Position numbers and translations under genes: made by a program. A stretch of 64,000 bases of DNA from the NCBI RefSeq assembly GCF_013315695.1, contig NZ_CP054353.1; one strand, 5' to 3'. The notes beneath the pieces were generated by a model that ran no database searches, was not told the DNA's origin, and saw nothing but the letters and a program-made list of their open reading frames with translations. This document shows, piece by piece, positions 26,973-29,146 of the stretch. The stretch's first letter is position 1. Each line of letters starts with the position of its first letter. This stretch comes from Escherichia coli (GTDB lineage Bacteria; Pseudomonadota; Gammaproteobacteria; Enterobacterales; Enterobacteriaceae).

Positions 26973-26983
26973 TCACCAATCCC

Positions 26984-27049
26984 CTACTTTTGTTGCGCAA
27001 ACTCTGCCAGCAACGGCCAGCGTTTTAATGCCGCGGCCAACTGTTCGCG
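26984..27049 (-). pseudogene. bcsR: 3' remnant of bcsR (last 21 codons plus stop); 5' part replaced by IS1
   Basis: Minus-strand frame reads REQLAAALKRWPLLAEFAQQK* ending just before the bcsQ ATG and abutting the IS1 end. Confidence 0.6.
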
Positions 27050-27064
27050 GGTAATGACTCCAAC

Positions 27065-27568
27065 TTATTGATAGTGTTTTATGTTCAGATAATGCCCGAT
27101 GACTTTGTCATGCAGCTCCACCGATTTTGAGAACGACAGCGACTTCCGTCCCAGCCGTGCCAGGTGCTGCCTCAGATTCAGGTTATGCCGCTCAATTCGC
27201 TGCGTATATCGCTTGCTGATTACGTGCAGCTTTCCCTTCAGGCGGGATTCATACAGCGGCCAGCCATCCGTCATCCATATCACCACGTCAAAGGGTGACA
27301 GCAGGCTCATAAGACGCCCCAGCGTCGCCATAGTGCGTTCACCGAATACGTGCGCAACAACCGTCTTCCGGAGCCTGTCATACGCGTAAAACAGCCAGCG
27401 CTGGCGCGATTTAGCCCCGACATAGCCCCACTGTTCGTCCATTTCCGCGCAGACGATGACGTCACTGCCCGGCTGTATGCGCGAGGTTACCGACTGCGGC
27501 CTGAGTTTTTTAAGTGACGTAAAATCGTGTTGAGGCCAACGCCCATAATGCGGGCTGTTGCCCGGCAT
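27065..27568 (-). CDS. insB: IS1 InsB
   Basis: Identical 167-aa ORF. Confidence 0.9.
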
Positions 27569-27762
27569 CCAACGCCATTCATGGCCATATCAATGATTTT
27601 CTGGTGCGTACCGGGTTGAGAAGCGGTGTAAGTGAACTGCAGTTGCCATGTTTTACGGCAGTGAGAGCAGAGATAGCGCTGATGTCCGGCGGTGCTTTTG
27701 CCGTTACGCACCACCCCGTCAGTAGCTGAACAGGAGGGACAGCTGATAGAAACAGAAGCCAC
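27487..27762 (-). CDS. insA: IS1 InsA
   Basis: Identical 91-aa ORF. Confidence 0.9.
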
Positions 27763-27826
27763 TGGAGCACCTCAAAAACACCATCATACACTAAATCAGT
27801 AAGTTGGCAGCATCACCTTATTTTCA

Positions 27827-29146
27827 ATGCTAAATCATGAAAAAGGTCTATACTATTTGGCCCGTGATTTGCAGTGTTCTATTGATCCCCATAATTACCT
27901 TTTTATTCTTGTTTGCGCAAATAATGCATGGCAAAACATTCCTGCCGAGCGGCTTCGCTCATGGTTGGATAAAATGAATAAATGGAGCCGGCTAAACCAT
28001 TGTTCGCTTTTGGTAATTAATCCCGGAAATAATAACGATAAACAATTTTCATTGTTGCTTGAGGAATACCGTTCACTTTTTGGTCTTGCCAGTTTGCGTT
28101 TTCAGGGCGACCAACATTTGCTGGATATTGCCTTCTGGTGCAACGAAAAAGGGGTCAGCGCCCGTCAGCAGCTTAGCGTTCAGCAACAAAATGGTATCTG
28201 GACATTAGTTCAACACCAAGAGGCGGAAATCCAACCACGCAGCGACGAAAAACGCATTCTGAGTAATGTTTCTGTACTTGAAGGTGCGCCGCCGCTATCG
28301 GAACACTGGCAACTGTTCAACAATAACGAAGTTCTGTTCAATGAAGCCCGTACCGCTCAGGCAGCGACGGTGGTCTTTTCTTTACAACAAAATGCGCAAA
28401 TCGAGCCACTGGCCCGCAGCATTCATACTCTGCGTCGCCAGCGCGGTAGTGCGATAAAAATCCTCGTACGGGAAAATACCGCTAGTCTGCGCGCCACCGA
28501 TGAACGTTTGTTATTGGCCTGCGGTGCAAATATGGTTATCCCATGGAATGCCCCACTCTCCCGCTGTCTGACGATGATCGAAAGCGTGCAAGGGCAGAAG
28601 TTTAGTCGCTATGTGCCGGAAGATATCACTACCTTGCTGTCAATGACCCAGCCGCTCAAACTGCGTGGTTTCCAGAAGTGGGATGTGTTCTGTAATGCCG
28701 TCAACAACATGATGAATAACCCTCTATTACCTGCCCACGGTAAAGGCGTTCTGGTTGCCCTACGTCCGGTACCGGGTATCCGCGTTGAGCAAGCCCTGAC
28801 GCTATGTCGCCCTAATCGCACCGGCGATATCATGACCATTGGCGGTAATCGGCTGGTGCTGTTTCTCTCATTCTGTCGGATTAACGATCTGGATACCGCG
28901 TTGAATCATATTTTCCCATTGCCTACTGGCGACATTTTCTCAAACCGTATGGTCTGGTTTGAAGATGATCAAATCAGTGCCGAGCTGGTGCAGATGCGCC
29001 TGCTTGCCCCAGAACAATGGGGCATGCCGCTGCCTTTAACGCAAAGTTCTAAACCGGTCATCAATGCCGAGCACGATGGTCGCCACTGGCGACGAATACC
29101 AGAACCAATGCGACTGTTAGATGATGCTGTGGAGCGCTCATCATGA
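27827..29146 (+). CDS. bcsE: Cellulose biosynthesis protein BcsE, 5'-truncated by IS1 (439 aa remain; promoter and native start missing)
   Basis: Reading frame is open from the IS1 boundary (…[14 protein letters not shown]…); first ATG at 27827. Confidence 0.8.

Follow-up and report, generated by a model that had tools for sequence, protein, structure and literature searches.

An IS1-associated deletion truncates bcsR and bcsE in an ST648-like lineage of Escherichia coli and predicts loss of cellulose production

A stretch of 64,000 nucleotides of Escherichia coli DNA (contig NZ_CP054353.1 of assembly GCF_013315695.1; hereafter the window) carries a complete IS1 element in place of 637 bp at the junction of the two divergent cellulose operons, bcsRQABZC and bcsEFG. 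We consider it likely that IS1 inserted into bcsR first, that the 637 bp were then lost by an adjacent deletion, that the event is recent and clonal, and that the strain is cellulose-negative.

The IS1 element at the bcs locus has the following parts.

27050-27817, minus strand: complete IS1 (IS1A type), 768 bp, defined by exact terminal-repeat matches and by its measured length and flanks
27050-27072, minus strand: right inverted repeat (IRR), exact match, adjoining the bcsR remnant
27795-27817, minus strand: left inverted repeat (IRL), exact match, adjoining truncated bcsE
27487-27762, minus strand: insA, intact open reading frame of 91 amino acids
27065-27568, minus strand: insB' reading frame, intact, 167 amino acids
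27505-27511: A6C frameshift motif, the -1 site joining insA and insB', seen in the sequence

IRR and IRL agree at 18 of 23 positions, as expected for the imperfect terminal repeats of about 23 bp of the IS1 family. A sequence identical to this element is annotated as 'IS1-like element IS1A family transposase, programmed frameshift', joined over 27065-27762. By sequence comparison, the three IS1 copies within the window are identical to one another. The copy at the bcs locus has ...CTGTTCGCG as its left flank and TTATTTTCA... as its right flank and shows no 8- or 9-bp target duplication, unlike copy 1 of the window, which has a normal 9-bp duplication. The first-pass annotation of this DNA had noted the missing 9-bp duplication, which comparison of the two flanks bears out, and had placed the feature at 26973-27830, an interval that brackets it correctly. 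A missing duplication is expected for an IS1 copy that has made a deletion.

Two truncated genes flank the element.

26984-27049, minus strand: bcsR remnant, codons 42-62 and the stop codon, translation REQLAAALKRWPLLAEFAQQK, placed by alignment to intact BcsR
27818-29146, plus strand: bcsE remnant, codons 82-523, with three amino-acid differences from residues 82-523 of BcsE of an ST648 strain

The bcsR remnant lies directly upstream of the bcsQ ATG at 26972, and its translation and alignment agree with the earlier statement that the last 21 codons of bcsR are kept there. It lacks a start codon, and five codons upstream, inside IS1, its frame is closed by a TAA. The retained residues correspond almost exactly to the C-terminal helical domain of BcsR. 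On the other side, the bcsE reading frame abuts IS1 in frame and continues from residue 82 at 27818 onward. The first in-frame ATG is at 27827 (Met85), and no Shine-Dalgarno sequence is evident upstream of it. The first-pass annotation was right that bcsE is truncated in frame, but its counts (about 84 codons lost, 439 amino acids left) need correction: 81 codons are lost and 442 remain, the figure of 439 being the length of the open reading frame counted from Met85. The lysine that it read before LFSML is absent from the window. The triplet before this leucine is the end of IS1, and residue 81 of BcsE in this lineage is T, not K. In an annotated record of the identical sequence, bcsR is described as 'incomplete; missing N-terminus' and bcsE is annotated as partial.

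Alignment of the junction to the intact bcsR-bcsE region of K-12 and of a close relative of ST648 background, a check that had been proposed earlier, confirmed the truncation of both genes. Compared with the ST648 relative, exactly 637 bp are missing, the flanks mapping to positions 7550 and 8188 of its locus; the same flanks are 638 bp apart in K-12. Of the lost DNA, 123 bp belong to bcsR (codons 1-41), 271 bp are intergenic and 243 bp belong to bcsE (codons 1-81). The flanks are colinear but non-adjacent in the intact relatives, with the missing DNA exactly between them. Colinear flanks together with the absence of a target duplication indicate an IS1-associated deletion rather than a simple insertion. 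Both IS1 junctions are at or within A+T-rich DNA. The divergent intergenic region had been said to be gone, and all 271 bp of it are indeed absent. The further claim that both divergent promoters were removed holds for the region itself, and the placement of the promoters in it is deduced from the operon layout; on that layout, all DNA that could hold the native bcsRQABZC and bcsEFG promoters would be lost. No mapped bcs transcription start sites or promoters were found in the literature searched.

The remaining bcs genes are as follows.

26220-26972, minus strand: bcsQ, intact, 250 amino acids, without the K-12 stop codon
23605-26223, minus strand: bcsA, intact, the window being 100% identical to the annotated record
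21255-23594, minus strand: bcsB, intact, annotation mapped via gap-free 100% alignment
20142-21248, minus strand: bcsZ, intact, annotation mapped in the same way
16687-20160, minus strand: bcsC, intact, annotation mapped in the same way
29143-29334, plus strand: bcsF, intact, its presumed native upstream promoter region now missing
29331-31010, plus strand: bcsG, intact, its presumed native upstream promoter region likewise missing

That these seven genes are structurally intact had been asserted from the window alone, and the NCBI pipeline marks none of them as a pseudogene in the identical sequence. The nine-gene Bcs set with its divergent control region is nevertheless incomplete, with bcsR and bcsE truncated and the intergenic region absent.

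Many identical IS1 copies are a common source of mis-joins in assembly, and a repeat-collapsed or mis-joined IS1 could in principle make a false deletion. We find this hardly credible here. The same 3-kb sequence occurs at 100% identity in the complete genomes MSB1_4I (Australia) and AF3 (UK blood), which were assembled independently and share both junctions, and the flanks are perfectly colinear with the reference. The window genome is a third genome, differing from MSB1_4I and AF3 at the yiaB/xyl locus. Among 5,426 complete genomes both junctions occur together only in MSB1_4I and AF3, where the NCBI annotation pipeline marks bcsR and bcsE as partial pseudogenes. The nearest relatives (99.9% identity) have a full-length bcsR. 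With three genomes of one ST648-like lineage carrying the allele and their relatives intact, the event appears to be recent and clonal. IS1 is abundant in this lineage, which has it at 40 or more places per chromosome. A search within the lineage for a simple IS1 insertion at either junction found none. As a separate observation, about 151 genomes keep bcsA-bcsQ and do not have the 637-bp segment.

The first-pass annotation had proposed an IS1-mediated adjacent deletion, and this remains the most economical reading. In the sequence of events that we propose, IS1 would have entered bcsR at the 9-bp target CTGTTCGCG with its transposase genes facing bcsQ. Its IRL end would then have transposed intramolecularly into an A+T-rich stretch of bcsE, at a target starting TTATTTTCA, with the loss of 646 bp in all when the second copy of the duplication is counted. 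IS1 and its bcsR-side junction would have stayed unchanged, giving a classical IS1 adjacent deletion.

The deletion probably began from bcsR, because in an unrelated strain the same nucleotide is the site of a simple IS1 insertion flanked by a 9-bp duplication, and this strengthens the adjacent-deletion reading. Strain STEC346 has IS1 at the identical bcsR nucleotide, in the same orientation, with CTGTTCGCG as its duplication, so that a primary insertion site is attested at the bcsR junction. We considered whether STEC346 and the window share this insertion by common descent or through a transferred tract, and rejected it: the first differences appear at 175 bp from the junction and follow the K-12 pattern. 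The STEC346 flanks differ about as much as those of K-12, and its IS1 differs at three positions. In strain A10, IS1 also lies at the identical bcsR nucleotide, in the opposite orientation, next to a deletion that ends at bcsE codon ~135. A10 and STEC346 show 17 differences over 1,550 bp and are likewise unrelated. A shared bcsR end and a variable bcsE end, as between A10 and the window lineage, would be the pattern expected of adjacent deletions.

The direction could also have been the reverse, with IS1 first in bcsE codon 82 and its IRR end transposing into bcsR, deleting leftwards. Intramolecular target choice should follow insertion preference, and the bcsR site has been hit three times independently; CTGTTCGCG is a preferred IS1 target, and a deletion begun from bcsE could just as well have ended there. 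Nearby in bcsE, IS1 also lies 22 bp downstream in CFSAN061762 and 10 bp downstream at the EcPF16 junction. However, no genome joins the bcsE-side junction to an intact 5' part of bcsE, whereas the simple insertion on the bcsR side exists, and it is the bcsR end that A10 and the window lineage have in common while the bcsE end varies. We therefore regard the reverse direction as improbable.

An identical product, one IS1 without a duplication, would also arise if IS1 had inserted twice in one orientation, into bcsR at CTGTTCGCG and into bcsE by TTATTTTCA, and the two copies had recombined and deleted the DNA between them. The region is IS1-prone, with IS1 within or near bcsQ-bcsE in 69 complete genomes in this orientation and in 76 in the other, and the lineage itself is rich in IS1. 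This route requires two insertions and a recombination, against one insertion and one transposition for an adjacent deletion. A simple IS1 insertion at the bcsE-side junction occurs in none of the 5,426 complete genomes, no genome was seen with two IS1 copies bracketing the segment, and adjacent deletions are a classical product of IS1. A mosaic IS1 was looked for as a sign of two-copy recombination, although the identical copies of the window would conceal one. Recombination between two copies thus seems to us an unlikely origin, and we keep the adjacent deletion begun from bcsR as the preferred one.

We examined whether transcription leaving IS1 could keep the locus at work. Two sites are relevant.

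27810 to 27783, pointing towards bcsQ: IS1's own promoter-like site, CTGCCA-16-TATGAT, within the IRL region, found by standard promoter scan
27804-27831, plus strand: candidate hybrid outward promoter, with -35 TTGGCA in IRL, a 16-nt spacer and -10 AATGCT in bcsE

The standard scan for outward promoters called only IS1's own promoter. The hybrid candidate came from a relaxed scan, with 8 of 12 consensus matches, and scores too low to be called by the standard scan; the relaxed scan gave no hybrid candidate towards bcsQ. A simple scan found no intrinsic terminator between the IS1 promoter and bcsQ, so some read-through into bcsQ is possible. The promoter of IS1 is self-repressed and of low strength, and insertions of the element have polar effects. 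According to PMC4287979, which cites Prentki 1986, the ends of IS1 contain outward -35 elements that can form hybrid promoters. As in the IS1-end hybrid promoters of Prentki et al. (1986) and of pgaA::IS1 in strain 55989, as given in PMC4287979, the TTGGCA here lies 8 bp from the IRL terminus, facing bcsE. It differs from them in that the adjoining -10 (AATGCT) is poor and the standard scan calls no promoter there.

The strain is predicted to be unable to make phosphoethanolamine-cellulose, and to be cellulose-negative even if IS1 reads outward. The candidate native promoter DNA of both operons would be lost, and bcsQ could be transcribed only by read-through across IS1 from the element's weak, self-repressed promoter. 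Full-length BcsR and the complete N-terminal domain of BcsE are not encoded: codons 42-62 are all that is left of BcsR, which would lack its N-terminal domain and a start codon, and BcsE is without residues 1-81, which would belong to the domain recruiting the BcsERQ complex to the membrane. Because the N-terminal domain of BcsR and part of that of BcsE are deleted along with the promoter region, the prediction is stronger than the one made in the first-pass annotation. BcsR is reported to be essential in E. coli 1094 (PMC5727187). Secretion and BcsA levels reportedly depend critically on its N-terminal domain, and its residues 40-62 alone are insufficient in vivo (PMC7840130). Residues 1-217 of BcsE are needed for membrane targeting (PMC7439463), and non-polar deletions of bcsE, bcsF and bcsG are cellulose-negative in AR3110 (PMC4287979). 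In Cronobacter sakazakii, bcsR has been described as a negative regulator of cellulose (PMC5649176), which suggests that the BcsR requirement may not be universal.

A locus that still works, in which read-out from IS1 drives bcsQABZC and truncated bcsEFG and cellulose is still made, would be helped by several features: the IS1 promoter faces bcsQ with no intrinsic terminator found in between, bcsQ retains a good ribosome-binding site, a weak candidate with its -35 in the IS1 end faces bcsE, and the remaining bcs genes are all intact. Their integrity is expected anyway, the event being recent. The hybrid candidate would start transcription downstream of Met85, the only early ATG of the bcsE remnant, and the route into bcsQ depends on a weak, self-repressed promoter within a polar element. 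Above all, transcription cannot supply lost coding DNA, and BcsQ is unstable without BcsR (PMC7840130, PMC7439463). We judge a working locus very unlikely and hold to the prediction of a cellulose-negative strain.

IS1 has entered this region repeatedly, in about 145 of the 5,426 complete genomes, with at least about ten further distinct IS1 sites within ~700 bp and several independent IS1-flanked deletions. One bcsR nucleotide was hit three times independently, in the window lineage, STEC346 and A10. In strain A10 from Panama, IS1 joins the bcsR nucleotide of the window allele to bcsE codon ~135. Strain 361 from Houston has an IS1-flanked deletion from bcsR codon ~45 to bcsE codon ~367. EcPF16 has one from bcsC to bcsE, and its bcsE junction is 10 bp from that of the window. 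We also considered IS1 enrichment as a sign of selection. The counts of 69 and 76 genomes stand against a naive uniform expectation of about 4-8, but of two control regions of the same geometry, yiaF-yiaG has IS1 in 80 genomes and is equally IS1-rich (pdeH-kdgK has it in 4), and the candidate was rejected. The bcs region is IS1-prone, not unique. It is doubtful that the bcsR-bcsE region, or one bcsR nucleotide, is a true IS1 hot spot by which cellulose is repeatedly and independently switched off, with selection in clinical or host-associated lineages, and not neutral decay, behind the losses.

The literature search turned up no description of IS1 in bcsR or bcsE; the IS1 insertions treated in PMC8669472 are different ones. 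Public records already annotate the two truncated genes as pseudogenes, and the allele is a real but ordinary gene loss by a mobile element, its mechanism and genes being well known. It opens no long-standing question. It offers a clean natural example of one IS1 event that disables two divergent operons at once, and it adds to the evidence that E. coli often loses cellulose production. The adhesive and pro-inflammatory activity of curli is reported to be dampened by cellulose (PMC4287979), and a strain that loses cellulose can therefore interact differently with its host. For this lineage, seen in Australia in gut carriage and in the UK in bloodstream infection, the prediction is a biofilm that is curli-only or deficient in matrix.

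The allele can be compared with three kinds of known lesion. In the unrelated strains A10, 361 and EcPF16, as in the window, an IS1 without duplication joins a remnant on the bcsRQ side to a truncated bcsE, and the end points, the IS1 orientation and the extent differ. Adjacent deletions of IS1, such as those beside a copy of the element in the gal region, were reportedly described by Reif and Saedler in 1975. As in the classical cases, IS1 is intact here, one end of the deletion lies exactly at the IS1 terminus, the duplication is lost, and the far end varies among events that share the IS1-side junction (window lineage and A10). Unlike them, this deletion occurs in a natural isolate and not under laboratory selection, and its mechanism is deduced from the product. 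The K-12 bcsQ stop codon and the bcsE frameshift of the O104:H4 outbreak strain (PMC4287979) are likewise strain-level lesions that inactivate an accessory bcs gene and spare bcsA and bcsB, and those strains are cellulose-negative, as is predicted here. Those alleles are point mutations, whereas here an IS element is responsible and one event hits both divergent operons, taking in bcsR, bcsE and their shared control region.

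The IS1 terminal repeats occur three times each, for both ends, in the window, and one of the three elements, copy 2, lies within the bcs (cellulose) locus:

27050-27817, minus strand: IS1 copy 2, exactly 768 bp as delimited by its terminal repeats
27505-27511: A6C frameshift motif of IS1 copy 2
26984-27049, minus strand: bcsR remnant, translating as REQLAAALKRWPLLAEFAQQK followed by a stop

The insA and insB' frames of this copy are intact. Its flanking bases were compared, and because the 9 bases on the left (CTGTTCGCG) differ from the 9 on the right (TTATTTTCA), there is no 8- or 9-bp target duplication. 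An 11-base spacer separates the stop of the bcsR remnant from the ATG of bcsQ (26972), and to the right of the element reading continues on the plus strand in the bcsE frame. The first-pass annotation had described an IS1 lacking a duplication, a bcsR tail at bcsQ and bcsE cut in frame, all of which is correct by sequence; the residue K that it placed at the head of the bcsE remnant was a small error.

The two flanks of copy 2 are separated by 638 bp in K-12 MG1655 and by 637 bp in the close relative 'ST648' (CP008697). The missing segment consists of bcsR codons 1-41 (123 bp), all 271 bp of the intergenic region and bcsE codons 1-81 (243 bp). The bcsE remnant keeps 442 codons, with three residue differences from BcsE 82-523 of the 'ST648' relative, and its open reading frame from the first in-frame ATG (Met85) encodes 439 aa. 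The truncation of bcsE noted earlier thus holds; the loss, put then at about 84 codons, is 81 by alignment to the intact relative.

Two complete genomes, MSB1_4I (from a rectal swab in Australia) and AF3 (from a UK blood culture), match the 3-kb stretch around copy 2 at 100% identity. With junction-specific queries, both junctions were found together only in these two among 5,426 complete E. coli genomes. The NCBI pipeline annotates their bcsR and bcsE as "incomplete; missing N-terminus" and bcsQ, A, B, Z, C, F and G as intact. The window, a third member of the lineage, has a gap-free alignment with MSB1_4I across 1-60487, so the same genes are intact or partial in it. The closest genomes with the region intact are ST648-type strains (99.9% identity). 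The presence of the allele in all three genomes and the intact region in such close strains indicate that the bcs deletion is real, clonal and recent.

IS1-mediated adjacent deletions classically have the IS1 terminus as their common end point, and the other end point varies. The unrelated strain STEC346 has a simple IS1 insertion, with a 9-bp duplication (CTGTTCGCG), at exactly the bcsR nucleotide and in the orientation seen in the window. Its flanking DNA is as divergent from the window as that of K-12 and its IS1 differs from ours at three positions, so this insertion was an independent event. In A10 (Panama), a third unrelated strain, an IS1 of opposite orientation occupies this nucleotide, and the deletion there runs to about bcsE codon 135. 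No simple insertion at the bcsE-side junction was found among the 5,426 complete genomes. These three observations favour a route in which IS1 insertion in bcsR was probably followed by an IS1-mediated adjacent deletion. Had the deletion instead started in bcsE and ended at the preferred bcsR target, the product would be identical; we regard this as improbable given the same observations. Homologous recombination between two IS1 copies could also have removed the segment with an identical product; the window's three copies do not differ in sequence, so a mosaic would not reveal it, and this course too seems unlikely. By the favoured bcsR-first route, IS1 would have inserted in bcsR, and its left terminal repeat (IRL) end would then have transposed intramolecularly into an A+T-rich stretch of bcsE (35% G+C), removing the DNA between.

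The bcsR(yhjR)-bcsQABZC and bcsEFG genes are regarded as divergent operons (PMC7397504, PMC5727187). Any native promoters within the inter-operon region would have been lost with its complete removal; no mapped bcs transcription start sites were found in the literature searched. Promoters aside, BcsR was reported to be essential in E. coli 1094 (PMC5727187); a caution is that bcsR has been termed a negative regulator in Cronobacter (PMC5649176). The BcsR C-terminal domain (residues 40-62) is enough for a stable BcsRQ complex but not for function in vivo, where secretion and BcsA levels reportedly depend on the N-terminal domain (PMC7840130). The bcsR remnant (residues 42-62) corresponds almost exactly to the C-terminal domain; it lacks a start codon and is preceded, 5 codons upstream and inside IS1, by an in-frame TAA. 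Membrane recruitment of BcsERQ requires BcsE residues 1-217 (PMC7439463), and non-polar deletion of bcsE, bcsF or bcsG rendered AR3110 cellulose-negative (PMC4287979). We infer corresponding functional consequences of the deletion for the window, MSB1_4I and AF3.

The sole consensus promoter in copy 2 is IS1's own, in IRL (27810 to 27783) and directed at bcsQ, and a simple scan found no intrinsic terminator on the bcsQ-directed strand. On the bcsE side, the only candidate is a weak hybrid promoter (TTGGCA-16-AATGCT), with a predicted start downstream of Met85. Read-out from IS1 could at best express bcsQABZC or bcsFG, and it cannot substitute for the lost coding sequence.

The other two IS1 copies of the window are as follows:

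2591-3358: IS1 copy 1, flanked by rcdB and yhjB; normal 9-bp duplication (AAAAAACAA)
60488-61255, minus strand: IS1 copy 3, no target duplication (CGACAACAA vs AGTTTATCC)

The identity of the three copies suggests that IS1 expanded recently in this lineage; each sister chromosome (MSB1_4I, AF3) has at least 40 IS1 places. Copy 3 is absent from that site in both sisters and links a yiaB remnant straight to mid-xylG (window 60488-64000). It marks a second IS1-associated deletion, yiaB'-xylB-xylA-xylF-xylG', which predicts a xylose-negative strain. MSB1_4I and AF3 have intact xylB and xylA, as well as xylF, which the stretches compared cover in part. An IS110-family transposase ORF (62074-63207) also splits xylG. 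In the MSB1_4I annotation, bisC (window about 46786-49114) is frameshifted, which the window should share given the gap-free alignment; five Ldr type I toxin genes in tandem adjoin bcsG (about 31097-33137), where K-12 has a single ldrD; and IS150 lies between glyS and hokA (about 53424-54793).

Among complete genomes, IS1 lies within or near bcsQ-bcsE in the same orientation as in the window in 69 and in the opposite one in 76. The first four sites below were verified by sequence, and about 10 further distinct IS1 sites are implied by match spans.

AF14 (OZ546925): IS1 4-12 bp upstream of the bcsR ATG
2EC1: IS1 30 bp upstream of bcsE, 8-bp duplication
CFSAN061762: IS1 at bcsE codons 89-91
WWCOL-236: IS1 at the bcsE/bcsF junction, immediately after the bcsE stop and at the beginning of bcsF; bcsE still full length in PGAP
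Strain 361: IS1-flanked deletion, bcsR codon ~45 to bcsE codon ~367
EcPF16: IS1-flanked deletion, bcsC to bcsE
22AR0750: clean deletion without IS, intergenic region and 5' part of bcsE gone

AF14 and WWCOL-236 are near relatives of the window lineage (flanks 99.5-99.8% identical), and their own, different IS1 insertions indicate several independent bcs hits in one clonal group. The 637-bp bcsR-intergenic-bcsE segment was matched in 5,185 complete E. coli genomes, bcsA-bcsQ-bcsR' in 5,336 and bcsE'FG in 5,402. About 151 genomes retain bcsA-bcsQ with no match to the 637-bp segment; the two inspected were 22AR0750 and strain 361.

At the bcsR nucleotide at 27049/27050 (codon 41/42, target CTGTTCGCG), three mutually unrelated E. 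coli backgrounds carry IS1, with both orientations represented, and the strain 361 junction is 11 bp away. These junction sequences suggest a site-specific hot spot for IS1. Two control neighbourhoods of the same geometry served as a test for more than IS1 target preference. IS1 in one orientation was present in 80 complete genomes at yiaF-yiaG / cspE-hokA (window about 50.6-53.5 kb) vs. 4 at pdeH-kdgK, so IS1 density along the chromosome is very uneven. The bcs control region is IS1-prone, consistent with its low G+C, but not unique. Regional IS1 abundance was dropped as a sign of selection because the yiaF-yiaG control is equally rich. Cellulose loss driven by IS1 via the bcsR hot spot is possibly recurrent, and perhaps adaptive. 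In itself, the bcs lesion is unremarkable: a recent pseudogenisation by IS1 at a well-studied locus, flagged before in public annotation.
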